Part shown: positions 8,159-52,501 of the stretch, one piece after another | Numbering within the stretch: the first letter of the stretch is position 1 | Layout of the letters: the number at the start of each line of letters is the position of its first letter | Assembly: GCA_964373695.1 (NCBI GenBank) | Contig: CAYJVT010000002.1 | Span: 1,020 to 65,019 of the forward strand | Length of the DNA: 64,000 nt | Direction of reading: 5' to 3' | From: an uncultured archaeon | Lineage (GTDB): Archaea; Aenigmatarchaeota; Aenigmatarchaeia; GW2011-AR5 | Made by a program: the position numbers and the translations under genes | The notes under the pieces: model-generated | Told to the model about the DNA's origin: nothing | The model's database searches: none | The model's input: the letters and a program-made list of their open reading frames with translations, nothing else

Positions 8159-8310
8159 TGCGGGAGGGCGGATTCGAACCGCCGAACGGACTAACCGACA
8201 AGATTGCCCATCTGGACTTGAGTTTCGCAATCATCCTTCCTGATACTTGCGCCTTTTTCTGCAACCCTTTGCTTGCACAAAGGATTTGACCAGACTTGGC
8301 TACCCCCGCT
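8159..8310 (-). tRNA. Intron-containing class-II tRNA (probably Leu; candidate anticodon CAA)
   Basis: Minus-strand acceptor GCGGGGG/CTCCCGC (one G-U); D-loop AAGTCTGGTCAAA like archaeal tRNA-Leu; T-arm GGCGG-TTCGAAT-CCGCC; discriminator A. 152 nt includes a D-arm hairpin insert CCTTTG-TGCAAG-CAAAGG and a helix GATTGC...GCAATC around a CTCAAG loop. Confidence 0.7.
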
Positions 8311-20670: not shown

Positions 20671-21729
20671 ATGAAATCGGCGTATATAGCTGTTCTCTTG
20701 CTCGTTTTTACAGCCGGATGCACCGGACTGTCCGGCGTGTTCGGGGGCGACATACTCAACATAAAGCAGAACCTCATCCAGGAGGGGCAGAAGGACATAA
20801 TCGTCATAAAGGATGTCTCGACGATACCCAAATCCCCCATGCTCCCTGAACAGTCGTTCGTGCTTACGATGCTTCTGGAGAACGTCGACAAGACCGAGGA
20901 CGCCACGAATGTCGTGGTGGACCTCTTCAACGCACCGACCGTGAAAAGCGACAAAGAGGAGTCCCGGGGAAGCGTATGCAATGCCGGAAGCGGAAGCGTA
21001 TGCCTCCCGGACAAGTGCAAGAGTAGTGAAAACGGAAAATGCATTGTCGAGACAACAATGCTTCCTGGAGAACAGATTCCGGTCAATTTCTACCTGAAGA
21101 CGCCAACTGAGGATGAAATAGTAGGCATAGAGACCAAGCCGGCCCTCGACTACAGGGTCACATACGACTTCGAGTCGTCATCGTTATATATAATGCCGTC
21201 AGTCAACCTGGACGAGATAATAAAGAACCAGAGGAGCAACGACAAGGTCAATGTCCAGGTGACGAAGTCCTACGGCACCGGCCCTGTCAGGATTGACATG
21301 GACCTCTTCGGCACGCCGTACATACTTTCGGGACAGTCGGCGACATTCATATTCAAGATAACGAATACAGGAGTGGGCAACGTCATAGGCTCCCAGATAG
21401 ACGCCGGAAATTTTGAGGTAAGCATACCGAAGAGCCTGATAGGAAGCGGCAGCCTTATGCTTCCTGGAGGCGGCGTCTTCGAGTCCGGCCAGTATACGCA
21501 GACGACAGAGAGGTTCTCGTGTAGTGGTGATGAAACGTACGTGACATGCACGAACGCCGACGCCATACAGATGTACAAGGACCAGACGCGCGGCTCGCTG
21601 CGCTTCGAGGTGCAGGGAGTGGCCGACATAAACCAGCCCTTCGTATCGTACGACATAAGGGCGTCTGTGAAATACAGGTACGAGTTGCGCGGCACCCAAG
21701 AGATAACTGTAAAGCCGTTTGAAAGCTGA
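20671..21729 (+). CDS. Secreted lipoprotein, paralog 1 of 4
   Basis: Signal peptide plus lipobox LVFTAGC. Beta-rich. C-terminal YRYE...ITVKP strand motif shared with the downstream paralogs. Confidence 0.7.
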   Translation: MKSAYIAVLLLVFTAGCTGLSGVFGGDILNIKQNLIQEGQKDIIVIKDVSTIPKSPMLPEQSFVLTMLLENVDKTEDATNVVVDLFNAPTVKSDKEESRGSVCNAGSGSVCLPDKCKSSENGKCIVETTMLPGEQIPVNFYLKTPTEDEIVGIETKPALDYRVTYDFESSSLYIMPSVNLDEIIKNQRSNDKVNVQVTKSYGTGPVRIDMDLFGTPYILSGQSATFIFKITNTGVGNVIGSQIDAGNFEVSIPKSLIGSGSLMLPGGGVFESGQYTQTTERFSCSGDETYVTCTNADAIQMYKDQTRGSLRFEVQGVADINQPFVSYDIRASVKYRYELRGTQEITVKPFES

Positions 21730-21734
21730 TTTTT

Positions 21735-22604
21735 ATGAGATATGCAATAATCCTTGCATTCCTGATAGCCGCGAGCGGATGCGTCTCCCAGAGCGCCTCC
21801 TATGGCGGGCTGGTTGTCAGCATGTTCGCTGACCCGCCGCAGGTATTCCAGAACCAGGCCACAACGCTTTTCATCGACATAGACAATAGGGACGTGAAGA
21901 AGGTCAACAATGTCGTCTTCGAGGTGTTTGACACAGGCATCATGCGCATCATGGATGGCACAACCGTTTCGGCATGCAGGAAATCCTTCCCCAAGCTAGT
22001 GCCGAAGGAATTCCAGACTTTCTCATGCAGGCTGGCAGCAGGGAGCGTTGGCGAGACCATTGTCAACAGAATAAGCGCCAAAACCACTTTCAGCGCCGAG
22101 CTGAACGCGGTGCAGCTCATAGAAATGATATCCAGGCAGGAATACGAGAGGAGGAAGGCGGCCGGCACCTTCATCACAGCGCCAAGGAAATATACTTATT
22201 CCGACAGCAACGTGGCGCTTGACATAGAATTCAGCGAGGATATGCCGGTGATAGAAAGGAGCGGAAAGAGGTACTTCATACACATGACCGTCAGGAATAC
22301 AGGGAACGGCTACATAAGGGAGCTGGAGCCCGGTGATTTCATAGTCACCCAGAAAACGTCTGAAAGTTTGCAGATACTTCCAGACATAGAAACCGTGAGT
22401 GTTATCAACACCCAAGCCGACAACCTCGTCAGGTGCGACGACTTCGGGGAGAAGCTTTCACCAATAGGCGACAAGTTCCCCAGAGTGACGTGCGAGTTCG
22501 TGCCTCCCAAAAAAATAGGCGTCATAGGCAATTACCCAATGGAAGTGAAGATAAACTACGATTACGAGACGAGGCAGAATCTCAACATAAGAATAATAAA
22601 ATAA
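21735..22604 (+). CDS. Secreted lipoprotein, paralog 2 of 4
   Basis: Lipobox LIAASGC. Shared C-terminal KINYDYETRQNLNIRI motif. Confidence 0.7.
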   Translation: MRYAIILAFLIAASGCVSQSASYGGLVVSMFADPPQVFQNQATTLFIDIDNRDVKKVNNVVFEVFDTGIMRIMDGTTVSACRKSFPKLVPKEFQTFSCRLAAGSVGETIVNRISAKTTFSAELNAVQLIEMISRQEYERRKAAGTFITAPRKYTYSDSNVALDIEFSEDMPVIERSGKRYFIHMTVRNTGNGYIRELEPGDFIVTQKTSESLQILPDIETVSVINTQADNLVRCDDFGEKLSPIGDKFPRVTCEFVPPKKIGVIGNYPMEVKINYDYETRQNLNIRIIK

Positions 22605-22658
22605 AGCCCAAAAAATCTTTTTAAAGAGGTGTAATCATAACTATAAAGAGGTATAAAA

Positions 22659-23633
22659 ATGAAGATTGGACTTTTCGCCGTTCTTGCTCTTATATTTGTG
22701 GTCGGATGCGTCGGCGGCGGCACGAGGCCGACCACTATCAGCGACACAGAAGGCGTCCGCATCTCGTCATTCACGGCAACGCCCTCTGTAACCGATGTTT
22801 TGTCGGGCGACACAGTCATATTCGATGTCGAGGTTGAGAACATCGGCGGGACAACAGCTTCTGATGTCGAGGTCACCCTGTCCGGCATAGAGAACCAGTG
22901 GAGGACGACCGGCGGCGTCCCGGCACCACAGGTCATAGCAAAGTCATTCTCATCATTGAGACCGCCGCAGGCGGAAAGGAACATAGCCGGCGACTTCCGC
23001 ATCGCGCAATGGGAATACATGACGCCAAGAATACCCGAAGGTCTCAGGACGCCGCTGAACATAGAGTCACGCGTCACTTATAAGTATAATACAAATGGCT
23101 TCCTCCAGCTTACCGCTGTGAACGACGAGGAATTCAGGAGGCAGCAGGTCATAGGCTCCTCGATAGACCCACCTGTAGTGCAGAACAGCGCAGGACCGCT
23201 GAAACTGTCGGTGCCGTCGACTGAGAAAAGCAGCTTCGTGATAGTTGACACAGCCTCGACCGAGCCCGAATTCATATACCCGCTCAAGATAGAATTCAGG
23301 AACGTCGGCGCCGGATTCCCCCTGGGAACTGATTCAACCAACCAGGGCAGGCTGACCGGAACCATAAAGCTTCTCGGGCCTGGCGTGGAGTTTTCCAGCT
23401 GCCTCGGTGTTACGAGCGGCCGCGAAGTCGCCCTCCAGGACAGCGGCGTCAATGACGTCATAGTCAAGCTCAGGGACACCCAGAATGTTCCTATCGTCTG
23501 CAACCTGAAATTTACAAAATCGGAATGGCAAAACACGCCCACCGACAAGGTGAGCCTTGTCTTCAACATAGACTACACGTATTTCACCAAGCAGACTGCC
23601 ACAGTGAACGTTCTGGGAAGAAGAACGGAGTAA
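22659..23633 (+). CDS. Secreted lipoprotein with CARDB-like N-domain, paralog 3 of 4
   Basis: Lipobox IFVVGC. FTATPSVTDVLSGDTVIFDVEVENIGGTTASDVEVTL matches the CARDB pattern. C-terminal NIDYTYFTKQTATVNVLG. Confidence 0.7.
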   Translation: MKIGLFAVLALIFVVGCVGGGTRPTTISDTEGVRISSFTATPSVTDVLSGDTVIFDVEVENIGGTTASDVEVTLSGIENQWRTTGGVPAPQVIAKSFSSLRPPQAERNIAGDFRIAQWEYMTPRIPEGLRTPLNIESRVTYKYNTNGFLQLTAVNDEEFRRQQVIGSSIDPPVVQNSAGPLKLSVPSTEKSSFVIVDTASTEPEFIYPLKIEFRNVGAGFPLGTDSTNQGRLTGTIKLLGPGVEFSSCLGVTSGREVALQDSGVNDVIVKLRDTQNVPIVCNLKFTKSEWQNTPTDKVSLVFNIDYTYFTKQTATVNVLGRRTE

Positions 23634-23685
23634 TTTTTTCTTTTGATTAAAGTATTTTATATACAGAAGTTTCTATAATTATTAC

Positions 23686-24945
23686 ATGAAGGTCTATCTT
23701 CTTATGATTCTCGGCCTTGTGCTCGCGGCCGGGTGCGTTTCGCAGGCGAAGAACCCGAACAACGGTATCATTATAAACGAGTTCACGGCCGACCCGAAGA
23801 TTGCGGAATACGGCGACACCGTGAGATTCTTCCTGGACGGCGAGAACATCGGGGGCACTACGGCCCAGTGCGTGACGACAGAGCTTTACGGGCTTGAGGG
23901 AGGATGGACGGACCTTACAGGACAGCTGTTCGCCATTCCGTATGTAGGGCAGACGATAAACGCCGGGCAGCCAGGCATCACAATAGGCTTCGAGTCGTGG
24001 GGATTCAACATACACAGGGTTAACGACCGGTGGGGAGGCTCCATTTTCTACAACGACCTAAGCGTCGAAGGCGGAAGGAGAATAGTCGCGTCCATTGAAG
24101 GCGGCGACTTCTCGGTCAGCGGCGGCTTTTACAGCATAACGACGGCTATAGACACGTCTTTCAGGAGATTCGCAGCAGATTATTGTACTTACATAGGCGG
24201 AAGGTTCCCTGGCAAGATAAAGTTTGAGCCAGTCCTCTCTCCGCCTCTTCCGGAAAGGAACAAGCCTGGGCAATCTTTCACTGCGGACTGGATTCTGAAG
24301 CCCCCTCTGATACCTGAGGGCCTGTCTGTCGACTATCCTGTAACAGCCAGGACGTCATTCTTCTACACGTCGAACGCGCAGGTTAACATACCAGCTTACA
24401 GCAAGGCCGAATACAAGAGAAGGCAGGACATAGGGGAAGCCGTCGACCAGCCGCTCAATGTCGTCAACACCCATGCGGCCCCGATACAGGTCGGTATAAC
24501 CAGGGGCGCAAGTCCCATGGTTGTCAACACCGACACTACATTTTCGGCCCTGCCGGAAGAGACTTTCAATTATCTCATTGAACTGCGGAACGTAGGACAG
24601 GGATATCCCCTGCCTTTCAGCGACGTGCAGACAACCGTAGGGAACGACATAAGCGTCGAGAGCGGATTTGTCATCGCGACGATGAGCATAGCAGGCCCTG
24701 GCGCGCGTTTCGAGGACTGCCTGGGCCAGAGCGGACAGGAAGTTCTGATAGGCCCTGATATAGTCGCGAACCTGGTGAAGCTGCGCTCCGACGGAAAGGC
24801 CCCCTTCGGATGCAAGGTGGCGATAAACAAGGGCGCATGGCAGACGACGCCCGTCGGCACGGTCAGCATAACGTTCAACATAATGTACAGGTATTATGTG
24901 GACAAGCACGCAACAGTGACCGTGATAGGGCCGTCAAGGTCTTAG
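23686..24945 (+). CDS. Secreted lipoprotein with CARDB-like N-domain, paralog 4 of 4
   Basis: Lipobox LVLAAGC. FTADPKIAEYGDTVRFFLDGENIGGTTAQCV. C-terminus NIMYRYYVDKHATVTVIG is near-identical in pattern to paralog 3. Confidence 0.7.
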   Translation: MKVYLLMILGLVLAAGCVSQAKNPNNGIIINEFTADPKIAEYGDTVRFFLDGENIGGTTAQCVTTELYGLEGGWTDLTGQLFAIPYVGQTINAGQPGITIGFESWGFNIHRVNDRWGGSIFYNDLSVEGGRRIVASIEGGDFSVSGGFYSITTAIDTSFRRFAADYCTYIGGRFPGKIKFEPVLSPPLPERNKPGQSFTADWILKPPLIPEGLSVDYPVTARTSFFYTSNAQVNIPAYSKAEYKRRQDIGEAVDQPLNVVNTHAAPIQVGITRGASPMVVNTDTTFSALPEETFNYLIELRNVGQGYPLPFSDVQTTVGNDISVESGFVIATMSIAGPGARFEDCLGQSGQEVLIGPDIVANLVKLRSDGKAPFGCKVAINKGAWQTTPVGTVSITFNIMYRYYVDKHATVTVIGPSRS

Positions 24946-26154
24946 GAAGCGTGCAAGGCTTTCCTTCTCTTCATCTATCCTGCCGTATACGCCGTCATAT
25001 CCCGGCACTATCTTCAACAAGCCTTCACGGTTGCGCATGATAAGGGACGCGAGCTTCTCGTCACAATATTTTGCAACGTCATCGCGTCCTGCATCAAGAA
25101 GTATGGAGAACTCATTTCCAACCCCACCTGTAAGCCTGTTGTAGACGTCCCACACTTTTTTCGTCTCAATACCGGAATTCACGGAATGAGCAATAAGCTC
25201 GTGGAGAGGCAGCAATCGCTTGAATGGTACAGAACCCTTTAGCTCATGACCTTCTGGCCTGTCGGCAAGCTCTTCGATGCGGCTCAGAACTCCTATTGTC
25301 AGCCTCTTGCCGCATTTCGGGCATAATCCGCCAAGTTTTTTTGTCTCTGACGGAGAGCATGAGAAATTGCAGGACCTGTGACCATCTATATGATATTTCC
25401 CGTATTCCGGCGGCGTTTCCACCGTGAACATGAAATTCTTCCGCGTTCTTATAGATTCTATCACATCGCCGTATGAAAAATCATTCTTCATGTCGAAGAC
25501 GTTTGCCTCCCGGCCAAGACGCCACGGGTAGGGGGAATGCGAGTCGCTGTTGCTGACAAGCGTTATGCCGTCAAGCTGCGACAGCCTCCAGTTCATCGAC
25601 GGGTCGGAGCTCATCCCCGTTTCCAGTGCATGTATATATCTTGTCTGGTCGCCAAAGCATTCTTCGAGGGAATCGTATCCGGATATGGAACCGAAAAGGG
25701 AGAACCACGGCGTCCATGCATGAGCCGGTATTACTTCTATATCCTTGCTTATCTGCATCATGGACTCGGCAAATTCCTGGCAGGAGAAGCCGAAGACGGG
25801 CCTGCCGTCGTAGTCACGCCTGCCTTTCCTGTCCAGCCATTCGTTTATCTGGTCAACGACATCAAACGAGGGCGCGTGCAGAAGGAGATGAACCCTCCTT
25901 TGCTTCCCATTATGGGAATATATGAGCGATATTTCCCCCGTGAGCATGAACTTCATGCCGTCGTAATCGTAGATGCCGCTGCCGTCAAGCGTCTCCTTGA
26001 GCGTTTTAAGCCATATTGGATGCGTCATGTCGCCGGTTCCGACAAGGCCAAGCCCTTTCGTTCTGGACCATTTTGATATCTCGCCTATCGTCATGCTCGG
26101 CGAAGTCGCCCTGGAATATTTCGAGTGTATCTGCAGGTCTGCAATGACTCTCAT
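24934..26154 (-). CDS. endQ: Endonuclease Q (PHP-domain DNA-repair nuclease)
   Basis: N-terminal ADLQIHSKYSRATSPSMT...GLGLVGTGDMTHPIW PHP motif. C4 zinc finger CNFSC...CPKCG. About 406 aa as in Thermococcales EndoQ. Confidence 0.75.
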   Translation of the reverse strand: MRVIADLQIHSKYSRATSPSMTIGEISKWSRTKGLGLVGTGDMTHPIWLKTLKETLDGSGIYDYDGMKFMLTGEISLIYSHNGKQRRVHLLLHAPSFDVVDQINEWLDRKGRRDYDGRPVFGFSCQEFAESMMQISKDIEVIPAHAWTPWFSLFGSISGYDSLEECFGDQTRYIHALETGMSSDPSMNWRLSQLDGITLVSNSDSHSPYPWRLGREANVFDMKNDFSYGDVIESIRTRKNFMFTVETPPEYGKYHIDGHRSCNFSCSPSETKKLGGLCPKCGKRLTIGVLSRIEELADRPEGHELKGSVPFKRLLPLHELIAHSVNSGIETKKVWDVYNRLTGGVGNEFSILLDAGRDDVAKYCDEKLASLIMRNREGLLKIVPGYDGVYGRIDEEKESLARFLRP

Positions 26155-26509
26155 GATATTTTAATGTGCAGAAATTATTAATCACTAATGAGGATATCTT
26201 CAGGGAAAAGGACGTTTTCAGTGAAGGATTGCCGCGGCCTGTCATGTATATGGGGCCTCATGTTTGACGATATGAAGAACATTGACGGCGCACTCGTCCG
26301 CGGCGGCAGCATATGGATGCCTTTCGTGAAGCATGAGCTGGAGCTGTTTTTCCTTGACAGAAACATGATAATATCTAAAATTCAAAAGGCCGTGCCAATG
26401 ACACTGAAGCCAAAAACATGGAAATCGTACTCATGCGCCGGCGCAAAATACTGCCTGGAGATGAGGAAAGGCGCGTGCAAAGCAAAATTAGGGATGAAAA
26501 TCAAGATGA

Positions 26510-26595
26510 TGGGCTCGGCAGGAATTGAACCTGCGGCCTCCTGCGTGTGAAGCAGGCGTCATACCAATGTCCGCGATGCTCTAGACTACAAGCCC
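26510..26595 (-). tRNA. tRNA-Val(CAC) with ~13–14-nt D-loop intron
   Basis: Minus-strand GGGCTTG...CGAGCCC acceptor; anticodon arm CCTGC-TTCACAC-GCAGG; T-arm GCAGG-TTCAATT-CCTGC. D-region is 30 nt instead of 17 (GTC-TAG[AGCATCGCGGACAT]TGGTAT-GAC). Confidence 0.8.
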
Positions 26596-26732
26596 TTAAT
26601 ATTTCTGTCGAGAAATGAATAAAAAATAAGGCAAATCACAATTAAAGCGCATATGAATGGCAAAAATCTTCCGTAAAAATGAAAAAAAATCCCGCGTCAT
26701 GTTTTTATAGTTATCAAGACATTTTTTATTCA

Positions 26733-27200
26733 ATGAATCAGGAAATTATTGACAAATACAGGAAGATGCAGGAAGAATTCAGCCTCCCGCAACTCGACGA
26801 ACTGACGGAAAAGTTCAAGATAGACGTCGAGGAAGACGAGAAGATATTCGACCAGATAAGGAACGATATGTCGGAGAAGCTTTTCATGTTCAGCGAGAGG
26901 ATAATAGAACCGGTGATAGGCGGCCTGGACTCATTTTCATGCATGTTCGAGCAGAACATGATCACTGAAGCCGAGAGACGCGACCTTTTCGAGCTTTACA
27001 AAAAGATACAGATGCTCAAATGGGAAAACAACATACTTCTCATATCGCCAGACGACAAAAAGATAGCGGAATGGATAAAAAAGACGTGGGATTTCTGGAA
27101 CTCCGACATGCAGGAAAAGATGCTCAAGTTCTCCGTCAAAATGTCGTCAGCCTGGGGCGATCTGAAATTCAAGAAGGACAGGTCCATTTACCTTGGGTAA
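26733..27200 (+). CDS. Hypothetical protein
   Basis: Start at internal Met MNQEIIDKYRK of a 173-aa ORF. Acidic, helical. No family recognised. Confidence 0.5.
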   Translation: MNQEIIDKYRKMQEEFSLPQLDELTEKFKIDVEEDEKIFDQIRNDMSEKLFMFSERIIEPVIGGLDSFSCMFEQNMITEAERRDLFELYKKIQMLKWENNILLISPDDKKIAEWIKKTWDFWNSDMQEKMLKFSVKMSSAWGDLKFKKDRSIYLG

Positions 27201-27209
27201 ATTATTAAT

Positions 27210-27368
27210 GGGCCGGATGAGATTTGAACTCACGACTTCAGTCGGCGGAACCTTCCGGATGCCGCCGTCTCCTGTTGGCTTAGAGCAATATTTTGTTCTT
27301 GATGCACGCATGTTTTAACAAAATACGTCATATAAGACAGGTGCTCTACCAGCCTAAGCTACCGGCCC
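27210..27368 (-). tRNA. Intron-containing tRNA (tentatively Ile, anticodon UAU), about 159 nt with two inserts
   Basis: Acceptor GGGCCGG/CCGGCCC; D-arm GCTT-AGGCTGGTA-GAGC; anticodon stem CCTGT...ACAGG enclosing 61 nt (loop CTTATA + ~54-nt intron); T-arm GTGAG-TTCAAAT-CTCAT; discriminator A. A further ~32-nt hairpin insert lies between the anticodon stem and T-stem. Confidence 0.7.
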
Positions 27369-27421
27369 CTTTAAGACACTCTGTAGTCAAATCTTATAAA
27401 CCTTGGCGGAGTTAATCAATT

Positions 27422-28300
27422 ATGCTTATTCACAAAGTCGAAAACATCCTGGACAGGAACGGCTACGACTACTGCGAGTACAGGGGATGTTTCGACATAG
27501 CGGCAAGAAAGAAGGGCATGCTTTTACTGAAGGTCTTGAGTAATATAGACTCCTTCCAGGAAATCCAGGCCAAGAACCTCAAGATACTGACGAGAGAAAT
27601 AGACGCCGGCGCAATGATAGTCGGCTCAACCACCAGAAGGGAGGTTCTTTCCGACAATATAGTATATGAGAGATTCGAAATACCGGCGATAAGCATAACG
27701 ACATTTGAAAGCTTTGTAGAAAACGAAGCCCCGGTTTTATACAGAAGAAGGGGCGGGCTTTTCGTCGACATAAATCCGGAGACGATGAGAAAAAGAAGGC
27801 ATGAGAGCGGCATGACCCAGGAAGTCCTGGCTTCCAGAATGGACGTCACAAAAAAAAGCGTATACGAGCACGAAAGGTCCATGATGAAGATGTCCTACGA
27901 GAGCGCCGTGCGGATGGAGGGCATCCTCGGGAAAGGCATAATAGAAAAGGCCAAAATTACCGTAAAAAGCGCCGGCGAGAGAAACTATCCTGAAAGCAGG
28001 TTCGAGTCTTTCGTGTCCAAAAACCTCGAAAAGAAAGGATTCAGGACAGGAATAATAAGGCGGTCGCCTGTCAACATCGTGGCCGAGGAAGGAAAATTCT
28101 CCATAATATCCGAGGCCGACGAGGTCCCTGAGAGAATAGAAAAAAATGCGGCTTCGCTGAAAAAATTCTCCGAGCTTTCGGGCAAGCCGGTGATAGCCAT
28201 AAGCAAAACCGAGATGGAAACAGACATACCTTCAATCGACAAGAAGTCCCTTGCAAGCATGGACGCCAGGGAATTGAAGAGATTTATAAGGAAATGGTAG
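27422..28300 (+). CDS. Archaeal HTH (XRE-type) transcriptional regulator, COG1395-like
   Basis: Central helix-turn-helix MTQEVLASRMDVTKKSVYEHERS. About 290 aa, as in archaeal COG1395 proteins. Confidence 0.6.
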   Translation: MLIHKVENILDRNGYDYCEYRGCFDIAARKKGMLLLKVLSNIDSFQEIQAKNLKILTREIDAGAMIVGSTTRREVLSDNIVYERFEIPAISITTFESFVENEAPVLYRRRGGLFVDINPETMRKRRHESGMTQEVLASRMDVTKKSVYEHERSMMKMSYESAVRMEGILGKGIIEKAKITVKSAGERNYPESRFESFVSKNLEKKGFRTGIIRRSPVNIVAEEGKFSIISEADEVPERIEKNAASLKKFSELSGKPVIAISKTEMETDIPSIDKKSLASMDARELKRFIRKW

Positions 28301-38159: not shown

Positions 38160-38657
38160 ATGATAAAGAAAATCAGAATACCGGATGAAAGGATACCGGT
38201 TCTCATAGGGAAGAATGGAAAAACTAAAGCCATGATACAGAGACTGACGCACACAAAAATCGACATTGGGGAAGAAGCGACAGTGGAAGGCGAGGCTGTG
38301 GATGTCATGACCGCAGAGAGCATCATAAAAGCCATCGGCAGAGGATTCTCACCGGAAGCTTCAGAAATCCTGTGCAGGGAAGACAGCACGCTGGAGATAA
38401 TCCAGCTCCCGAAAGAGAGAAAAGAATTAAATAGGATAAAATCAAGATTAATAGGAACCAAAGGGAAGTGTAGGAGGAACATAGAAAACCTTACCAAAAC
38501 CCGCATATCGGTCTTCGGAAAGACAGTTTCGGTCATAGGTCCGTACGATAACGTGAGGTTTGTGGTAGAGGCGCTTCAAAGACTTATAAAAGGCGACACA
38601 CACAGTTCCGTTTACAGGTTTCTGGAAGAGAACCAGGAAAAAATGAATTTTGAGTAA
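38160..38657 (+). CDS. KH-domain RNA-binding protein (Dim2/Pno1-like)
   Basis: Two KH units with IPVLIGKNGKTK and LIGTKGKCRRNIE GxxG loops. Start set at MIKKIRIPDER; the upstream in-frame part overlaps aIF1A. Confidence 0.7.
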   Translation: MIKKIRIPDERIPVLIGKNGKTKAMIQRLTHTKIDIGEEATVEGEAVDVMTAESIIKAIGRGFSPEASEILCREDSTLEIIQLPKERKELNRIKSRLIGTKGKCRRNIENLTKTRISVFGKTVSVIGPYDNVRFVVEALQRLIKGDTHSSVYRFLEENQEKMNFE

Positions 38658-41600
38658 GCCGGTGATGATCATGTCAAAGAAAACCGCGGAAGACTTCGCG
38701 AAGCAACAGAAGGAAATAAGCATATCAGAATTCTTTGAAAAGAACAAGCATCTTCTTGGCTTTGACAATCCGACAAAAGCCCTTCTCATGGCTGTGAAAG
38801 AAGCTGTCGACAATTCTCTTGATGCATGTGAAGAGGCCGAGATACTTCCTGACATAACCGTGAAAATAAAAAACCTGAAAGAAGATGTATACAAAGTATC
38901 GGTTCAGGACAACGGTCCGGGAATAGTGAAAGAACAGGTTCCGAGGATATTCGGCAAATTGCTCTATGGCTCTAAATTTCACCGATTGCGCCAGTCCAGA
39001 GGTCAGCAAGGAATTGGGATATGCACAACACCAGATACTTTAATACCTCTTGCAGACGGGCGCATAAAAAGGATAGAAGATATCGTAGAGTCGGAATTAG
39101 AAGAGGAAATATTTACACTCGCACCGGACATGAAACTAGTGCCAAACAAAATGAAAAAATTCTGGAAATTACCTGCGCCGGAAAAAATGATAAAAATAAA
39201 AATGCTCGGGGGCGGGAGCCTGACACTAACAAGAGAGAATCCTGTGCTAATAAAGACAGATTTCGGCTTAAACTGGAAACCCGCTGAGCTTGTAGCGCCA
39301 AGAGATTATATTGCTATGGCAAGAAATCTCTCTATAAATCATAATGAAAAAAAGATTCCACTTATCAGTTTGCTGGATGAAAATGTGCGTGTTGACAACT
39401 ACGAATTTCTTAGTGAAGTGCTGAGTATTTTGAAAAAAAGACATGGTACATGGTCTAAATTAGGAAATATATACGGCCTGCAAAAGGATCTTCTGAAGGG
39501 GTGGAAAAAGATGGGCATCAGAAGACGTCCAACACTAAAACAATATATTATGCTAGCTAAAGATGCAGGCTTCTCTGAAGATTATATAACAGAGAGCATA
39601 ATACGGGTTGGCAGGCTTGGGACTTATATAAAAATTTTTCGATATATGACCCCTGAACTAGCACGTCTCGCTGGCTTGGTGGCTGGCGATGGTAATATCC
39701 AGGCAAAGAGAAAAAACAGATGGGGTACAAACATATCTTTCTGGAATAATGATACAAAACTTATAGAAGAGTTCTGCAGCATAGTTTACAATTTTTTTGG
39801 TATAAGACCGAATGTTTATGCCCATACAAAAGGCCGCGGGACAGGGGCACAATTCTCGTCCTCAATAGTTGCTGATATTTTAGAAAAACTCGGTGTCCCA
39901 AGAGGTAGAAAAAGCGAGAAATTTGAAATCCCTGATTTGATACGACAAAACGGAGATCTGTCTGCTGCTTATCTTGGGGGGTTGTTTGATGCAGAAGGCT
40001 CTGTCAGCAGCGACAGAAAATGCATAACTCTTATGCTGAGTAACAAAAATGTAATCAATGTCATACGTCTTATGCTTCTTAGATTTGGCATAGTAAGCAG
40101 GATTAATAAAGCAGGAAAACATACAAGATTAATTATATCATCTGCGAAAAATGTAGAAAAATTCAAGAATATAATAGGCTTTACAATTAAGACAAATAAA
40201 GCAAAATTAGATTCATTAAAATTCTATAATGACAGAAAATGCAATCTTGAAGTCATACCGCATGTTAAGTATGCTGTTAAAAATTCTGTAAAAGAGATCG
40301 GTACCAGTTATTATGCTTTAAGAAGCCCAAATGAAATTTCTTCTATAAGAAGAGGCAGTGCAGTAAGCCATGAAACTCTTAATTCTTTATGTGAAGTGCT
40401 TGTTGAAAATTCCGGGGAAAGACTACCGCTTCCAGTACAAGAACTTGTAGGAATGGCGAATGCTGATGTAACATGGGCAAAGGTAATAGAAACAAAAGAA
40501 ATTGACTCTCCATGTGAATATGTTTATGACATAACTATGGGCATAGGTAATAATTTCGTAGCAAATGGGTTTGTAATACATAATTCAGCCGTTGTCCTGT
40601 ATTCGCAGCTTACCACAGGAAGCCCTACACGAGTTCTTTCAAAGACCGATGAAAAGAAAAAAACCCAGGCGTTTGAACTCATAATAGATACCAAAAAAAA
40701 CGAGCCTGAGATAGTAAAACATGAGGAAAAAGAAGACGGCATACAAGGCACCGGCATAAGGGTTGAGATGGATGTAGTCGGCAGGTACAGGAAGTCACAG
40801 GGAGTGGATGACTATCTTAAGCAGACTTCGATATCGAACCCGTTTGCAAAAATCTCATACAATGCGCCAGACGGGACGAAGATGCTATTTTCGAGGACTG
40901 TCAACGAGCTTCCCGTCCCGCCGAAGGAAATAAAGATACATCCATACGGCGTCGAGTTCGGCATTCTGCAGAGATTCCTCAACCAGACGAATTCGCGCAC
41001 TTTGCAGGCATTCCTCGTGAACGAATTTTCATCCGTTGGCCAGCAGACAGCGAAAGAAATGTGCAATATAGCAAAGCTTGACCCTAATATGAAACCCATT
41101 GACCTGTCAAGAGAGCATATCGAAAAGCTCCTTGGCGCGATGCAAAAAGCAAAGGTGCAGAGGCCGCCTCTCGACTGCCTTTCCCCCATAGGGGAGAAGG
41201 AGCTTGAAAAGAGCCTGAAAAAAGAATATCCGGATGCTGAATTCATAACAACCCTAACCAGGTCGCCTGAAGTCTACAGAGGCAACCCTTTCCAGATAGA
41301 AGTCGGCATAGTCTACGGCGGGCCTGATATAAAATCTGACGGGCCGATAGAAGTTATAAGGCTCGCGAACAGGGTGCCGCTGCTGTATCAGGCCGGTGCA
41401 TGCGCCACGATGGAAGCCATAAAGGAAGTCGACTGGAAGAGATACGGCCTCCAGCAGTCTGGCAATAATTTGCCGATAGGGCCGGTGATACTTGTCGTTC
41501 ACATGTGCTCCGCGTGGGTACCGTTCATATCCGAGAGCAAGGAGGCGATAGCATCCTATCCCGACATAATAAAAGAGATGAAACTCGCTGTACAGGATGC

Positions 41601-41811
41601 CGGCAGGAATCTCTCAAGGTACCTCTCCGGGAAAAGGCGAGCTGGCGATGCCAAGAGGAGAATACAGATATTTGAAAGGTACAGCGCCGAAGTTGCATCT
41701 GCGGTGTCTCTGCTTACAAAAAAATCCGAGAAAGACATAGAGAAAAAACTAAAAAACATGATAGCCCAGAGGACGCATATAAAAGATGAGGAAGAGAAGC
41801 AAGAAATATAG
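38650..41811 (+). CDS. top6B: DNA topoisomerase VI subunit B, interrupted by a 521-aa intein
   Basis: Bergerat-fold ATPase motifs EAVDNSLDA, DNGPGI and GKLLYGSKF...SRGQQGIG|C, then the C-extein with transducer domain. Extein total is about 532 aa. Confidence 0.9.
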   Translation: MSKPVMIMSKKTAEDFAKQQKEISISEFFEKNKHLLGFDNPTKALLMAVKEAVDNSLDACEEAEILPDITVKIKNLKEDVYKVSVQDNGPGIVKEQVPRIFGKLLYGSKFHRLRQSRGQQGIGICTTPDTLIPLADGRIKRIEDIVESELEEEIFTLAPDMKLVPNKMKKFWKLPAPEKMIKIKMLGGGSLTLTRENPVLIKTDFGLNWKPAELVAPRDYIAMARNLSINHNEKKIPLISLLDENVRVDNYEFLSEVLSILKKRHGTWSKLGNIYGLQKDLLKGWKKMGIRRRPTLKQYIMLAKDAGFSEDYITESIIRVGRLGTYIKIFRYMTPELARLAGLVAGDGNIQAKRKNRWGTNISFWNNDTKLIEEFCSIVYNFFGIRPNVYAHTKGRGTGAQFSSSIVADILEKLGVPRGRKSEKFEIPDLIRQNGDLSAAYLGGLFDAEGSVSSDRKCITLMLSNKNVINVIRLMLLRFGIVSRINKAGKHTRLIISSAKNVEKFKNIIGFTIKTNKAKLDSLKFYNDRKCNLEVIPHVKYAVKNSVKEIGTSYYALRSPNEISSIRRGSAVSHETLNSLCEVLVENSGERLPLPVQELVGMANADVTWAKVIETKEIDSPCEYVYDITMGIGNNFVANGFVIHNSAVVLYSQLTTGSPTRVLSKTDEKKKTQAFELIIDTKKNEPEIVKHEEKEDGIQGTGIRVEMDVVGRYRKSQGVDDYLKQTSISNPFAKISYNAPDGTKMLFSRTVNELPVPPKEIKIHPYGVEFGILQRFLNQTNSRTLQAFLVNEFSSVGQQTAKEMCNIAKLDPNMKPIDLSREHIEKLLGAMQKAKVQRPPLDCLSPIGEKELEKSLKKEYPDAEFITTLTRSPEVYRGNPFQIEVGIVYGGPDIKSDGPIEVIRLANRVPLLYQAGACATMEAIKEVDWKRYGLQQSGNNLPIGPVILVVHMCSAWVPFISESKEAIASYPDIIKEMKLAVQDAGRNLSRYLSGKRRAGDAKRRIQIFERYSAEVASAVSLLTKKSEKDIEKKLKNMIAQRTHIKDEEEKQEI
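39022..40584 (+). mobile_element. Intein with LAGLIDADG homing-endonuclease domain in top6B
   Basis: Begins with Cys directly after GIGI. LAGLVAGDGNI and LGGLFDAEGSV dodecapeptides. Ends VANGFVIHN with +1 Ser. About 30% GC against ~45% in the exteins. Confidence 0.85.
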
Positions 41812-41821
41812 GTAGTATATA

Positions 41822-44506
41822 ATGCCGCAAAAAAACGTGGGCGCGGAGCTGAAGAAACTCGGCGAATCCGTGCTAAACCATATAGAGAAAGGCGAGAACC
41901 CGAACATAGACATACCGCTAAGAACATTGTCCAACGTGATATTCGACAAAAAATTAGGGCAGCTTACCCTCGGCGGCAAGAGCGCCAAAAGGTACTTCTT
42001 CAATGTTGCCCACTCAAAAAAGTTCATGCAGACCCTTATGGTGGCAGGATTCTGCAATTCCCTTCTCGAAGAAGGCATACATACCAGCATAAGAGACATG
42101 TACTACAACCTCAAGCGGACGCTTCCGCAGAGCGATGAGAATACTTTCGATGAGCAGAGCGAGAGTATTTGCCCTGATGAGCCCCTGCTTGTCAAAATGG
42201 ACGGAGACCTCAGAATTTTGAGCGGAGAAGACCTCATGAGACATGCGGAAAAATCCGGGAAGGTAATATACGACAAAAACGGCAAGAAAAGAATCGTCGG
42301 GTTAGACCTCTATACCTATGCGTTTGATGAAAACCAGAAAATAAGAGAACAGAAGGTATCAATGGTCATAAAGCATCCCTCAAATAAAATCAAGAAAATA
42401 AAAACCTCCTCCGGAAGGGAAGTAAAAGTAACAAAGTCTCACAGCTTATTTACTCTTAAAGACGGGAAAGTAACTGAAATAAAAACAAATGAACTCAAAG
42501 AGGGCGACATGATAGCCCTTCCGAGAAAAATTTCTATAAAAGAAAACAACAAGCCAATAAATGTCATCGATAGCCTTCTTAGAAATGCTCCAGATGATGT
42601 TGTAAAGCTGTTCTATGTGAAGTCAGACAAAGACACAATAAATGAAGTAATAAAGAGGGTGGGAAAGGAGAGAATACGAATTTTTTCTTCGAATAATTAT
42701 AAAAATATATGGAGCGATGTAAAAGCTAACTGGAAGCATTGGAACACAGTCCCTATAGAGATTTTAAGGGACGTAGATTTGTCCGACATATTATCTAAAT
42801 TAAAAATCGGCGGCAGGGGATCTAGGCACTATTATAATGTACTGATAAACAAGGATTCCAGCTTGGGCTTTGTTCTTGGATTTCTCATTAGCGAGGGCTC
42901 TCATTCTATATTTGAGGGTAGGAATTCAAGATACGTATCCATAAGCAATAAATCAAAGATGCACCTGCAAAATTTCTGGGATGCATTCAAGCACTCGTTT
43001 GGAGAGACAACGGATGGTAATATCATATTGGGCAAAGATGATGTGTATAAGCTAAACATAGGGTATGATACACTTAGCTATATCCTTGAGTATGTTATAG
43101 GCTATAAACCTGTGAGGGCGTGGGAAAAAGAGGTTCCACATGTTATTCTCGATGCACCTCAAGATTGCATAAAGGAATTTCTGAGAAGCTTTAGGCTTGG
43201 AGATGGAAGCGTATTCGAAGGCAAAATGCTTGTAAATGGCTTGGTTTTTCTGCTGCTAAGGCATGGAATATTCCCCAGAATATATCACTATAAAATATCT
43301 GAAAAAAATCCGAACCATAAAGATGCATATGAAATCAGAATTGGCCCGAGGGAATATGTCAAAAATATGGCTCAGATAACACATGATTTCATGGGTATAG
43401 ACATAGAAAAAACAAGAGATTTCTCTTCAGACATGATACCAAACGTAGGGAGCCTTCTTCTAAAGACCAGAAAATCCTGTGACAGGCAAGGCATAGTTTA
43501 CAGAGAAAGAAATATAGGATGGAATTATATCGAGAACAAAAACAGCGTAAGCAGACTTCTTTTAAATAAAATGTCAAAGATATTGGATTCTTACGGCGCT
43601 TCGCAGCATTATTTAGATGAACTAAATGAACATGTAGAAAGCGACATATATTGGGATAGTATAATATCAATAGAAGACGACGAAATGCCGCCTTACACGC
43701 TGGATCTGGCTGTTCCGCCACATGAAAATTTCATAGGCGGGAACGGTCTTCTGATGCTTCACAATTCCGACCCGCTTATAGTCGATCTGGAAGTAGCACT
43801 GGACGTCTTAAGAGAGCAGCTGCACCTGACAACCGACAGGAAGGGAATAGTCGCAGGCAATGTCGTGATAGAGGACAGAGGCGACAGCATAGACTGGTCA
43901 AAGCTCGGGAGCGGCGGATGGTCGATACCGAGCACAGTTGACGAAATCAAACTCAAAAAGGTGGACGCAAAATTTGTTCTTGTTTGTGAAAAAAATGCCG
44001 GCTTCGAGCGCCTGCACGAGGACAAGTTCTGGCAGAAGCAGAAATGCATATTGGTCGGGACAGGAGGCCAGCCGTCAAGAGGCGCCAGACTTCTGATACA
44101 GAGATTGAATTCTGAATATGACCTGCCTGTTTATGTATTTTGCGATAACGACGCCTACGGCTTTTATATTTATTCAGTGATAAAATCCGGCTCGATAAGC
44201 CTTGCGCACGTTTCAGACAGAATATCGACACCGGAAGCTAAATTCATTGGGCTGACAACATCTGACATCTATGATTATAACCTCAAGAAATGCACGATAA
44301 AACTCAAGGAAGTTGACATAAAGCGCGCCAAGGAGCTGCTGGAATATGAATGGTTCAAGAAGAACCCCAAGTGGCAGAAAGAAATAAACCTCATGCTTGA
44401 AAAAGGCGTGAAAGCCGAGATAGAGGCGCTCTCTCACAGGGGTCTTAAATTCATGTCAGAGGAATACCTGCCGGACAAAATCAAGAAAGGCGATTTTCTC
44501 GATTAA
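41822..44506 (+). CDS. top6A: DNA topoisomerase VI subunit A (Spo11 homolog), interrupted by a 532-aa intein
   Basis: N-extein ...MYYNLKRT...FDEQSESI. C-extein carries Toprim (VLVCEKNAGFERL..., DNDAYGFYIY). Extein total is about 362 aa. Confidence 0.9.
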   Translation: MPQKNVGAELKKLGESVLNHIEKGENPNIDIPLRTLSNVIFDKKLGQLTLGGKSAKRYFFNVAHSKKFMQTLMVAGFCNSLLEEGIHTSIRDMYYNLKRTLPQSDENTFDEQSESICPDEPLLVKMDGDLRILSGEDLMRHAEKSGKVIYDKNGKKRIVGLDLYTYAFDENQKIREQKVSMVIKHPSNKIKKIKTSSGREVKVTKSHSLFTLKDGKVTEIKTNELKEGDMIALPRKISIKENNKPINVIDSLLRNAPDDVVKLFYVKSDKDTINEVIKRVGKERIRIFSSNNYKNIWSDVKANWKHWNTVPIEILRDVDLSDILSKLKIGGRGSRHYYNVLINKDSSLGFVLGFLISEGSHSIFEGRNSRYVSISNKSKMHLQNFWDAFKHSFGETTDGNIILGKDDVYKLNIGYDTLSYILEYVIGYKPVRAWEKEVPHVILDAPQDCIKEFLRSFRLGDGSVFEGKMLVNGLVFLLLRHGIFPRIYHYKISEKNPNHKDAYEIRIGPREYVKNMAQITHDFMGIDIEKTRDFSSDMIPNVGSLLLKTRKSCDRQGIVYRERNIGWNYIENKNSVSRLLLNKMSKILDSYGASQHYLDELNEHVESDIYWDSIISIEDDEMPPYTLDLAVPPHENFIGGNGLLMLHNSDPLIVDLEVALDVLREQLHLTTDRKGIVAGNVVIEDRGDSIDWSKLGSGGWSIPSTVDEIKLKKVDAKFVLVCEKNAGFERLHEDKFWQKQKCILVGTGGQPSRGARLLIQRLNSEYDLPVYVFCDNDAYGFYIYSVIKSGSISLAHVSDRISTPEAKFIGLTTSDIYDYNLKKCTIKLKEVDIKRAKELLEYEWFKKNPKWQKEINLMLEKGVKAEIEALSHRGLKFMSEEYLPDKIKKGDFLD
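42170..43765 (+). mobile_element. Intein with LAGLIDADG homing-endonuclease domain in top6A
   Basis: Starts CPDEPLLVKMDG. LAGLIDADG-like LGFLISEGS and FRLGDGSV. Ends GLLMLHN with +1 Ser. Exact N-terminal junction is ±1 residue uncertain. Confidence 0.8.
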
Positions 44507-44632: not shown

Positions 44633-44789
44633 GCCTCGGTAGCTCAGTACAAATCCCTTCTTTGTAAAGAAGGTCTTGGTGAACCCCAAGAAACTATTAT
44701 ACAATGGATAGGGAGAAAGGTAAGCAGTCTCTACAAAGAGCATTTGGCTGTTAACCAAAGGGTCGACGGTTCGAGTCCGTCCCGAGGCG
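44633..44789 (+). tRNA. tRNA-Asn(GUU) with ~83-nt intron in the D-loop
   Basis: Acceptor GCCTCGG/CCGAGGC; D-stem GCTC...GAGC separated by ~92 nt; anticodon arm TTTGG-CTGTTAA-CCAAA; V-loop GGGTC; T-arm GACGG-TTCGAGT-CCGTC; discriminator G. Confidence 0.85.
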
Positions 44790-45141: not shown

Positions 45142-45726
45142 ATGTCAAAAGAAGATAAAGAAGAGGCCGCTAGCGAGCTGCCGCCGGAGAAGGTAAAGAA
45201 CATACCCACGACCTTGGAAGAGAGCAAGGTCATATCCACCAAGGACTGGCAACAGGTATACGAGCCCGGATACTACGGAAAGCAGATAGGCGAGCGTCTT
45301 GAGCTTGCTCTGGTGGAAGCCGTGCTCCTGCTTAAAAGAGGCAGGATAGAGGTGTTCAGGGAAGGCAAGAGCATGAGCTTCAAGGAACTCTATGAACATG
45401 CCGCATCTCTTGACAAGAGGTTTGTTGAAAGATACCGCGTATATGAAGACCTGAGGGAAAGGGGGCTCTTGGTCAGGACAGGCTTCAAGTTTGGCTGCGA
45501 TTTCCGCGTGTACGAAAGGGGAGTGCAGCTGAAGAAAGGCCCGAAAAGCGCCAAGGAGCACACCAAATGGATAGTATTCTGCGTGCCGGAGGATTTCACG
45601 ATGTCTTTCCAAGAGCTTTCCAGGTCTGTAAGACTTGCCCATAATATAAGAGCAAGAATGCTCTGGGCAATTGTCGACAATGAAGGGGACTGCACATATT
45701 ACATCATCCAGAGAATGAAGCCCTAG
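45142..45726 (+). CDS. endA: tRNA-splicing endonuclease, catalytic subunit (EndA)
   Basis: C-terminal catalytic domain RTGFKFGCDFRVYE ... HTKWIVFCVPED (Tyr/His/Lys triad context). About 194 aa with an N-terminal domain. Confidence 0.85.
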   Translation: MSKEDKEEAASELPPEKVKNIPTTLEESKVISTKDWQQVYEPGYYGKQIGERLELALVEAVLLLKRGRIEVFREGKSMSFKELYEHAASLDKRFVERYRVYEDLRERGLLVRTGFKFGCDFRVYERGVQLKKGPKSAKEHTKWIVFCVPEDFTMSFQELSRSVRLAHNIRARMLWAIVDNEGDCTYYIIQRMKP

Positions 45727-49759: not shown

Positions 49760-51418
49760 ATGCCTACTATAGAAGTTTCGATGAAAGCCCTGGAAAAGCT
49801 TGCCGGAAGAAAAGTGAAGGAAAAAGATCTTGAGGCCGTGAAAGGGGAAATAGAAGAAACCGAAGGCGGCAAGGCAAAGATAGAAATAGGCGATACAAAC
49901 AGGCCTGATTTGTGGTGCGTCGAAGGGATAGCAAGGGTTCTCAGGGGAAAACGCTTCCAGAAACTTCCCGTCAAAAACAGCGGGAAAGAAATCATAGTCG
50001 ACAGGAAAATTCTTGGCATAAGACCTTTCATATCGGGCTTTGTCGTTAAAGGCGTGAATGTTGATGAGGAACTGCTTCTGGATATGATACAACTCCAGGA
50101 CAAACTTGATGAAAACTATGGGAAGAAGAGGAAAAAGATATCCATCGGCATATACAATTATGACATGATAAAATTCCCTGCGCATTACAAGGCCGTCAGC
50201 CCATCTCACAAGTTCGTGCCTCTTGGCCTTGACAAGCCTCTCACCATGAGAGATATATTGTCCAAACACCCCAAAGGTAGGGATTATGGATATATTGTTC
50301 GCGAGCACAAATTGTATCCGCTGCTTATCGACATGAAGGAAGATGTCCTCTCATTCCCACCAATAATAAACAGCAACTATCTCGGAAAGGTCAAGTTGGG
50401 AATGCAAAATCTTATGGTAGAAGTCACAGGAACCGACCAGAAATCCGTCCTTCTTGCTGCCAATATCTTTGCATATTCGCTTTATGACAGAGGAGCTAAT
50501 ATAGAGTCGATAACGACCAGATATCCGTCCACAACAAAGTTCGGGAGGTCAGTTACTTGTCCGTATGATTTCTGCCAGAAAATGTCATTCAACAGGAAAA
50601 ATGTGGAGAGTGTCCTTGGGATTGACCTGAAAAGCACGGAAATAAAGTCTCTGCTGGAGAAAATGCAATACGATGCTGAAATCTCCAATGATAAAGTAAT
50701 TGTTGTCATCCCCCCCTACAGAAATGACGTGATGCACTATACAGACGTGATAGAAGATATAGCAATAGCATACGGATACGGGAACTTCAAGGAATCTGGA
50801 ATTGAAAGCTTTACTGTCGGCAATCTAATGAAAGAGACACTTTTCACCGAGAATGTAAGAAGGGTTATGATAGGTATCGGATTTCAGGAAATAATGTCCG
50901 CGATACTTTCCAGCAAATCTGCCCTGTGTGATAAGATGAACACATCCTCAGAGCCACTGAAAATAGAAAATGTCATGTCAGAAAACTATTCGCATGTGAG
51001 GAGCTGGGTTCTACCAAGCATTCTTGCATGCCTGACGAAAAACATGCATAACGAATACCCGCAGAAGGTATTCGAGGTCGGGGAATGTGTGATTCGGGAC
51101 AAGAAATCATATACAGGAACAGTAACAATACAAAAAATAGCTGGCGCGATTTCAAGCGGAATTGCAGGCTATGAAGACATATCCTCGTGCATAGATGCTC
51201 TGCTTTGCGGCATCGGAGCAAAATACGAACTGAAGCTTTCGGTGCATCCCAGCTTTATAGAGGGCAGATGTGCCGACATATTAATCGGAGGGGATAAAGC
51301 CGGCATCGTAGGCGAAATACACCCCAAAGTGCTGAATAACTGGTCCATAGAAAAGCCGGTCGCGGCTTTTGAAGCTGATGTCAACTCCTTACTGAAAGCT
51401 TCCACTTCACGGGACTGA
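49760..51418 (+). CDS. pheT: Phenylalanyl-tRNA synthetase beta subunit (archaeal form)
   Basis: 552 aa immediately downstream of pheS. B3/4 and B5 domain pattern. Length typical for archaeal PheT. Confidence 0.9.
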   Translation: MPTIEVSMKALEKLAGRKVKEKDLEAVKGEIEETEGGKAKIEIGDTNRPDLWCVEGIARVLRGKRFQKLPVKNSGKEIIVDRKILGIRPFISGFVVKGVNVDEELLLDMIQLQDKLDENYGKKRKKISIGIYNYDMIKFPAHYKAVSPSHKFVPLGLDKPLTMRDILSKHPKGRDYGYIVREHKLYPLLIDMKEDVLSFPPIINSNYLGKVKLGMQNLMVEVTGTDQKSVLLAANIFAYSLYDRGANIESITTRYPSTTKFGRSVTCPYDFCQKMSFNRKNVESVLGIDLKSTEIKSLLEKMQYDAEISNDKVIVVIPPYRNDVMHYTDVIEDIAIAYGYGNFKESGIESFTVGNLMKETLFTENVRRVMIGIGFQEIMSAILSSKSALCDKMNTSSEPLKIENVMSENYSHVRSWVLPSILACLTKNMHNEYPQKVFEVGECVIRDKKSYTGTVTIQKIAGAISSGIAGYEDISSCIDALLCGIGAKYELKLSVHPSFIEGRCADILIGGDKAGIVGEIHPKVLNNWSIEKPVAAFEADVNSLLKASTSRD

Positions 51419-52213: not shown

Positions 52214-52367
52214 ACCACACCTAGAGATAATTATTGCCTCGGCGGTTTAAAAGCTTGAAAATGCTGCGTTTCAGATTTCACTCTACCTTACAAAAAAACG
52301 TCTCTGGCCGCATTGCGGGACAAGCCGGTCTGTTATTTATCTGTTTTACTGTATAAAACATTTACAA

Positions 52368-52501
52368 GGGCGCGTAGCTCAGCTTGGATAGAGCACCTTT
52401 TATGAAAGGCCTTCTTTCATAAGTGTCGGCCTTCTAAGCAGGGGGTCGCGGGTTCGAAAGCTGAAGCGCTAAGGCGTTGGCCGATTTTCCCGTCGCGCCC
52501 A
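52368..52501 (+). tRNA. Intron-containing tRNA with an insert in the T-loop/T-stem 3' side plus ~30 nt extra in the anticodon region; isotype undetermined (CAU possible)
   Basis: Acceptor GGGCGCG/CGCGCCC; D-arm GCTC-AGCTTGGATA-GAGC; T-stem GCGGG + loop TTCGAAA, then a 29-nt insert GCTGAAGCGCTAAGGCGTTGGCCGATTTT before the 3' T-stem CCCGT; discriminator A. 134 nt total. Confidence 0.75.

Follow-up and report, generated by a model that had tools for sequence, protein, structure and literature searches.

Does the tRNA gene at positions 52368-52501 carry an intron within its T-arm, and which machinery could remove it? The locus lies in the window analysed here, a stretch of 64,000 nucleotides (64 kb) of DNA from a tiny archaeon of groundwater belonging to the Aenigmatarchaeota (DPANN). 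The preliminary description had read the T-arm as GCGGG TTCGAAA, followed by 29 nt and then by CCCGT CGCGCCC A, and the sequence agrees with this reading. In full, the locus reads GGGCGCG TA GCTC AGCTTGGATA GAGC A CCT (30 nt) GC CTTCTAA GCAGG GGGTC GCGGG TTCGAA (29 nt) T CCCGT CGCGCCC A, with the 5' end GGGCGCG pairing with CGCGCCC. It thus holds a second insert, at position 29/30, which had gone unmentioned. A tRNA-Arg(UCU) gene with two protein-spliced introns, at positions 59/60 and 29/30, is the full explanation that we propose from these features, with a probability of about 0.85. The features of this gene model are as follows.

52368-52501, forward strand: complete tRNA-Arg(UCU) gene, 134 nt, with three exons and two predicted introns; CCA not encoded
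52368-52398, forward strand: exon 1, tRNA positions 1-29 (acceptor 5' strand, D-arm and the first 3 nt of the anticodon stem)
52399-52428, forward strand: intron 1, 30 nt, position 29/30, with a relaxed HBh'-type BHB
52429-52458, forward strand: exon 2, positions 30-59 (anticodon TCT at 52433-52435, variable loop, T-stem 5' strand and T-loop nucleotides 54-59)
52459-52487, forward strand: intron 2, 29 nt, position 59/60, within the T-loop; sequence AGCTGAAGCGCTAAGGCGTTGGCCGATTT
52488-52501, forward strand: exon 3 (T60, T-stem 3' strand, acceptor 3' strand and discriminator A73)
52333-52340, forward strand: A/T-rich box TTATTTAT, read directly, 28-35 nt upstream of the 5' end of the mature tRNA-Arg

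The A/T-rich box TTATTTAT is a possible archaeal TATA element, and the 45 nt upstream of the gene are nearly identical in the sister locus L011 described below.

Removal of both inserts leaves a 75-mer that ARAGORN calls as tRNA-Arg(tct) with a full cloverleaf, comprising a perfect 7-bp acceptor stem, a 4-bp D-stem, a 5-bp anticodon stem and a 5-bp T-stem, together with U33, A37, G18G19 and the T-loop TTCGAAT. At the unspliced locus, ARAGORN in its default and intron modes and with lowered thresholds returned either nothing or a false tRNA-Glu fold, and Rfam searches at the gathering score and at E <= 10 gave no tRNA match, the only matches being two weak and meaningless ones. The boundaries were approached by generating all combinations of one to three excisions at loose BHB motifs and retaining only full-length tRNA calls. 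In this unbiased search, the two-intron excision (52399-52428 plus 52459-52487) was the top-scoring of 6802 BHB-guided combinations. Brute-force excision judged by ARAGORN alone accepted 1865 variants and is too permissive for locating boundaries, which were therefore set by BHB register and by orthologs. Likewise, the relaxed BHB criterion (H >= 3, h' >= 3) is satisfied at 75 places in the gene and is therefore unspecific without cloverleaf and ortholog constraints.

The outer helix of the motif at intron 2 is the T-stem itself (GCGGG 52448-52452 with CCCGT 52489-52493). Its central helix joins TTCG 52453-52456 to CGAT 52482-52485 through three pairs and one U.U, and the two 3-nt bulges, AA/A (52457-52459) and TT/T (52486-52488), lie on opposite strands and in register, so that the geometry places the cuts after A59 and before T60. 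The inner helix is formed by GCTGA 52460-52464 and TTGGC 52477-52481, with an alternative inner fold in which GCT/GGC is combined with the hairpin AGCGC-TAAG-GCGTT. In this register the motif scores H 3/4, h' 5 and h 5; it is a relaxed BHB with a single U.U in the central helix, and about 0.9% of shuffled inserts match its pairing at the fixed T-loop position. A self-splicing group I or group II intron, which would have a ribozyme core hundreds of nucleotides long, was also considered for this insert and rejected, the insert being 29 nt long and matching no Rfam family at E <= 10.

Orthologs were collected by scanning one genome per species with the exon 2 sequence, which yielded ten loci (eight from Aenigmatarchaeota MAGs, one from a Nanoarchaeota MAG and one from a contig labelled Proteobacteria). 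In most archaeal loci the neighbours of the tRNA are those seen in the window, namely the genes for the MinD-type ATPase and for LeuRS/PheRS, and orthology is therefore supported by synteny besides sequence. The sister locus L011 (JACPAH010000019.1) is syntenic with the window and 80-86% identical to it at the DNA level over approximately 8 kb, and its MinD and LeuRS proteins are 96% and 93% identical to those encoded in the window. L011 has intron 1 and no T-loop insert. It reads GGGTTCGAA-TCCCGT, exactly the predicted spliced junction, and its allele across the T-loop, GGGTTCGAATCCCGT, matches the junction predicted from the BHB. The exons of the two genes match exactly except at acceptor position 3. 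Together with L011, five further orthologs read TTCRAA-TCCCGT and are intron-less at this site; the loci L004, L006, L008, L009 and L010 have no 59/60 insert and are called tRNA-Arg(tct) by ARAGORN.

Three side observations concern these loci. In L011 (7004-7107, forward strand), A3 stands opposite C70, giving an A.C mismatch in place of the G3-C70 acceptor pair of the window; either a genuine variant or an error of sequencing could account for it. The MAG contig labelled Proteobacteria (L002, DJLZ01000005.1) matches exon 2 and carries an uninterrupted tRNA-Arg(TCT), reflecting either cross-domain conservation of this tRNA segment or a misbinned contig. The PheRS beta gene of the window (49760-51418, forward strand) encodes a protein with only 66% identity to its L011 counterpart, as against 93-96% for the flanking MinD and LeuRS, which points to either unusually fast divergence or gene replacement.

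The orthologs bear directly on where the insert begins. It had been placed, with a length of 29 nt, between the T-loop TTCGAAA and the 3' strand of the T-stem, that is, at 60/61. The length stands, and the placement is off by one base, the true start lying one base to the left, inside the T-loop. A cut at 60/61 would likewise leave a 7-nt loop and a 5-bp stem, and variants spliced in this way are called tRNA-Arg, but it predicts the loop TTCGAAA, which is seen in no ortholog. Position 60 is T in every one of the ten orthologs (TTCRAAT), TTCGAATCCCGT is the sequence of the sister allele, and a 60/61 boundary puts the 3-nt bulges and the 4-bp helix out of register. We therefore regard it as very unlikely, and the 59/60 position is used in what follows.

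Inserts at A59/T60 were found in three other Aenigmatarchaeota loci, namely L007 (35 nt; adjoining MinD and LeuRS), the metagenome contig L012 (34 nt; adjoining MinD and LeuRS) and L003 (approximately 152 nt; adjoining MinD). L012 was the single contig returned by a metagenome scan for further 59/60 carriers of tRNA-Arg(UCU). The central helix, TTCG/CGAA, is perfect in both L012 and L003. The L003 gene (JAGVVW010000024.1, 5889-6199, forward strand), from an Aenigmatarchaeota MAG, is an orthologous tRNA-Arg(TCT) of 311 nt with three inserts, of approximately 87 nt at 15/16, 15 nt at 21/22 and approximately 152 nt at 59/60.

Covariation was analyzed in an alignment of these three carriers and the window gene, a set of four sequences hand-trimmed to the BHB core. 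In this alignment, 95.8% of the BHB cells are paired, and all three inner-helix (h') pairs have changed on both sides in a compensatory manner (for example G-C, A-U and U-A). Pairing falls to 30-56% when the partner strand is slid out of place, and 3 of 500 shuffles equal the observed covariation. With four carriers, this result favours a BHB at 59/60 and should be taken as supportive, not conclusive.

The same alignment weighs against the idea that the insert is never spliced and persists in the mature RNA, forming an additional hairpin of an enlarged T-loop. The insert does fold as a small hairpin, with the T-stem closing it. Such a hairpin would, however, disrupt the conserved T-loop bases 54-60, on which tRNA tertiary contacts depend. 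In all four carriers, moreover, the 3' end of the insert is complementary to U54-G57 and the 3-nt bulges are in register, an arrangement that is sensible only for recognition by an endonuclease. The length of the insert also varies from 29 to approximately 152 nt, and the sister species has none. Retention in the mature tRNA thus appears most improbable, and excision as an intron is the reading that we pursue below.

The motif at intron 1 is of a different form. Its central helix, GCAC 52393-52396 with GTGT 52423-52426, has four of four pairs, its bulges are CT/T (52397-52399) and CG/G (52427-52429), and its inner helix (52400-52409 with 52413-52422; h' 10) consists of nine Watson-Crick pairs and one G.U. 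An adjacent outer helix is absent (h = 0), which corresponds to the relaxed HBh' form, and formation of the motif borrows G24 and C25 from the D-stem. None of 20000 shuffled inserts matched the pairing of intron 1, and in L011 it is retained with 29 of 30 nt conserved, one base shorter in the loop. A BHB-constrained fold of the pre-tRNA, which had been suggested as a check, shows that both BHBs can form, at -51.6 kcal/mol, approximately 4 kcal/mol above the unconstrained minimum of -55.7 kcal/mol. Because of the U.U in the central helix of intron 2 and the lack of an adjacent outer helix for intron 1, a tolerant enzyme would be needed for both.

The enzyme expected to cut both introns is encoded in the window, 6.6 kb upstream of the tRNA-Arg gene.

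45142-45726, forward strand: tRNA-splicing endonuclease (EndA), 194 aa, single unit; Pfam PF02778 and PF01974

The scan of window ORFs found both the N-terminal and the catalytic Pfam domains in this protein, and its single unit of 194 aa, in which the catalytic domain is C-terminal, matches the alpha4 architecture (about 170-200 aa). Its best PDB match is the M. jannaschii alpha4 EndA (1a79, 2e-35), and the alpha subunit of the N. equitans enzyme is matched as well (3iey_A, 1e-31). A scan of 40 ORFs across the 64 kb revealed no second EndA-like ORF, including a beta subunit; the same 40 window ORFs included no RtcB ligase.

Two features set this EndA apart from the M. jannaschii enzyme. The gap between Tyr124 and His140 spans 15 residues as against 9 in M. 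jannaschii, owing to a 6-residue basic insert (LKKGPK), and the segment LKKGPKSAK aligns with PKKGKRSER of N. equitans. In the latter protein, the positively charged residues of this loop are expected to be important for broad specificity (Hirata et al., PMC3488258); the loop, named L3, has been associated in DPANN alpha4-type enzymes with more tRNA gene disruption (Kaneta et al., PMC5829648). A basic L3-type loop would fit a gene set rich in relaxed BHB motifs. The second feature is an incomplete catalytic triad, in which Tyr124 and His140 are present and the position of the lysine (K156 of M. jannaschii) is occupied by Ala171 (HNIRAR), where both reference structures read RKK. The Tyr, His and Lys residues have been stated to be conserved across all four EndA types (2019 review, PMC6379350).

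Of the 120 closest homologs, 119 have alanine at this position, as does the L011 protein, while 132 of 150 diverse EndA representatives have the complete Tyr-His-Lys set. A long G-x-K loop is present in 8 of the 11 EndAs that have Tyr and His without the Lys, an association of lysine loss with the long loop for which the Fisher test, uncorrected for phylogeny, gives p about 1e-6. In several Lys-less EndAs, the residue following this position is non-basic as well. Owing to the alanine at the catalytic position, activity of this EndA is not to be assumed; the invariant loop lysine K135 (G-P-K) may take over for the lost one.

From these elements, the following pathway can be proposed. The single syntenic tRNA-Arg(UCU) gene would be transcribed as a precursor with a body of 134 nt and two protein-spliced introns. 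In this precursor, T-loop nucleotides U54-G57 would pair with the intron segment CGAU, located 3-6 nt before the intron 3' end, to form the 4-bp central helix, with the T-stem as outer helix and the intron hairpin as inner helix. The 3-nt bulges AA/A and UU/U would then present the two scissile bonds, one after A59 and one before U60, and EndA would presumably cut both. By analogy with the established archaeal pathway, an RtcB-type ligase encoded outside the window would join the exons, whereupon the T-loop UUCGAAU would re-form. The 29/30 intron would be taken out likewise from its relaxed HBh' motif. The predicted joins are ...GGGUUCGAA + UCCCGU at 59/60 and ...GCACCU + GCCUUCU at 29/30.

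It could also be argued that the T-arm insert has disabled the gene, that no tRNA is made and that the locus is a decaying pseudogene. Neither ARAGORN nor Rfam recognises the locus, and the proposed central helix contains one mismatch. Against this, the exons equal those of the sister ortholog apart from acceptor position 3 and every cloverleaf pair is intact. The gene also occupies a conserved MinD/LeuRS site at which every relative keeps tRNA-Arg(UCU), and three other lineages carry inserts at the same position with compensatory BHB changes. Interruption is, moreover, the norm for tRNA genes in this window, since all the others are interrupted too. We give decay very little credence. The proposal that the T-arm insert is a 59/60-type intron requiring a BHB with T-arm nucleotides is thus supported by the cloverleaf, the BHB geometry, the intron-less sister allele, the three further carriers and the nearby EndA gene.

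The least probable explanation of all is that the insert is a chimera or other artefact of assembly, or else was left behind by a mobile element that integrated into the tRNA 3' half, although tRNA 3' halves are common integration sites. An independent Logan assembly contig (run ERR4904390, L001) is 100% identical over 3338 bp including the whole gene and both inserts. The insert measures 29 nt only and lacks flanking direct repeats, no integrase is located nearby, and neither the window nor the loci fetched contain a further copy.

With two protein-spliced introns as the preferred reading, the history of the 59/60 intron can be considered. The 59/60 introns of the window gene and L007 align better than 99.96% of shuffles, and similarity to the L012 intron is marginal (p about 0.05). 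Apart from intron 1 of L011, neither intron recurs anywhere else in the 64-kb window or in the loci fetched, and there is consequently no evidence here for intron transposition. The resemblance between the window and L007 introns suggests that they share an ancestor and that L011 underwent a precise loss. Taken with the patchy presence among close relatives, it suggests an old 59/60 intron that several lineages, the sister species among them, have lost precisely.

The other tRNA genes of the window are interrupted as well. ARAGORN detected two of them and Rfam three at the gathering score, the Rfam matches being the following.

6697-6786, forward strand: tRNA-Gly(GCC), with a 19 nt insert in the variable region
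26510-26595, reverse strand: tRNA-Val(CAC), with a 14-nt D-loop insert; mislabelled Cys(aca) by ARAGORN
27209-27368, reverse strand: tRNA with the anticodon loop CUUAUA, with a 55-nt 37/38 intron and a 33-nt variable-region insert

Our own scan of the 64-kb window for T-arms closed by 7-bp acceptor stems added four tRNA genes, which ARAGORN and Rfam had missed because of their inserts.

4841-4943, forward strand: tRNA-Ser(CGA), with a 20-nt insert
5630-5853, forward strand: class-II-like tRNA gene, 224 nt, with several inserts
8159-8309, reverse strand: Leu(CAA)-like tRNA gene, 151 nt
44633-44789, forward strand: tRNA-Asn(GTT), with two D-loop inserts

The four most complex tRNA genes of the window were not reliably resolved by the heuristic combining BHB motifs with ARAGORN. 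Among the four genes added by our scan, the complex ones have isotypes assigned by eye only. Interruptions occur in all eight tRNA genes detected in the window, two or three times in several of them. Because all eight are longer than a mature tRNA, the introns of tRNA-Arg would appear to be one instance of a genome-wide habit.

Several protein-coding regions of the window also deserve mention. The topoisomerase VI subunits B and A (38650-41811 and 41822-44506, both on the forward strand) both contain inteins with LAGLIDADG homing-endonuclease domains. A 1694-aa ORF (11950-17034, forward strand) gives only faint matches to SprB/REJ repeats, and a run of ORFs of 170-420 aa without Pfam match occupies positions 20671-28300.

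These observations have consequences beyond a single gene. Standard finders overlook the essential tRNA-Arg(UCU) and most of the neighbouring tRNAs. Without BHB-aware tools, inferences on genome completeness and codon usage for Aenigmatarchaeota MAGs will consequently be wrong. The pair of present and absent alleles in sister species, together with three carriers at 59/60, provides material for the question of intron gain or loss. The locus also points to an EndA family whose active site is non-standard and which would evidently cope with relaxed BHB motifs. A broader picture, which we put forward tentatively and regard as rather doubtful, is that the tRNA genes of Aenigmatarchaeota are among the most fragmented known, are serviced by a Lys-less one-unit EndA with K135 substituting, and carry a 59/60 intron that is old and has repeatedly been lost precisely. 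If this were true, the 59/60 intron would constitute a natural series for studying the loss or gain of BHB introns.

Comparison with known systems places the tRNA-Arg(UCU) introns in a familiar context. Positions 29/30 and 59/60 are both listed among the known non-canonical tRNA intron positions (PMC4090602). In ARMAN-2, the pre-tRNA-Cys(GCA) has a 59/60 intron and the pre-tRNA-Pro(GGG) has introns at 53/54 and 59/60 (Fujishima et al. 2011, PMC3239211). The earlier view of such introns as rare and mechanistically informative was therefore overstated, since 59/60 introns are listed in reviews and have been drawn for the ARMAN-2 tRNA-Cys and tRNA-Pro (PMC4090602, PMC3239211). We found no published description of tRNA introns in Aenigmatarchaeota in the open-access literature.

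ARMAN-2 (Ca. Micrarchaeum acidiphilum) shares with the present case its DPANN affiliation, a BHB-type intron at T-loop position 59/60, the possibility of more than one intron per tRNA, and genes that are missed by standard tRNA finders. The present case differs in its phylum (Aenigmatarchaeota), in its isoacceptor (Arg-UCU) and in the partner intron at 29/30. In contrast to the ARMAN-2 Cys intron, which is of the hBH type, the T-loop intron described here possesses the two bulges as well as the two flanking helices, with one mismatch, and the three-unit epsilon2 EndA of ARMAN-2 is replaced here by a one-unit EndA.

The EndA alpha subunit of Nanoarchaeum equitans (3iey_A; loop K93 K94 G K96 R97) has an insert of the same length at the same place in the Tyr-His interval, likewise with KKG. 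The N. equitans enzyme keeps the catalytic lysine (RKK) and works with a beta subunit, whereas the present protein has alanine and is unaccompanied by a beta subunit in the window.

Thermoproteales tRNAs can contain as many as three introns, and a search for introns of this kind belongs to the default settings of tRNAscan-SE 2.0 (PMC8450103). As summarised in PMC4090602 and PMC8450103 from Marck & Grosjean 2003, Sugahara 2008 and Fujishima 2010, these multi-intron tRNAs resemble the present case in their non-canonical intron positions, including 29/30 and 59/60, in having several introns in one gene (three at most), in their relaxed HBh'/hBH motifs and in a presence or absence that varies between close relatives. 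Thermoproteales are, unlike the present lineage, TACK archaea with an (alpha-beta)2 EndA bearing a Crenarchaea-specific loop. They also have similar introns in many tRNAs, pointing to transposition, whereas the present intron was found only once across the 64-kb window and the loci fetched. Precedents for introns at 59/60 and 29/30 thus exist in Thermoproteales and ARMAN-2, and the tRNA-Arg(UCU) case adds to a known type. The find is genuine but fairly ordinary, and the more unusual leads than the 59/60 intron are the interrupted tRNA set and the lysine-less EndA.
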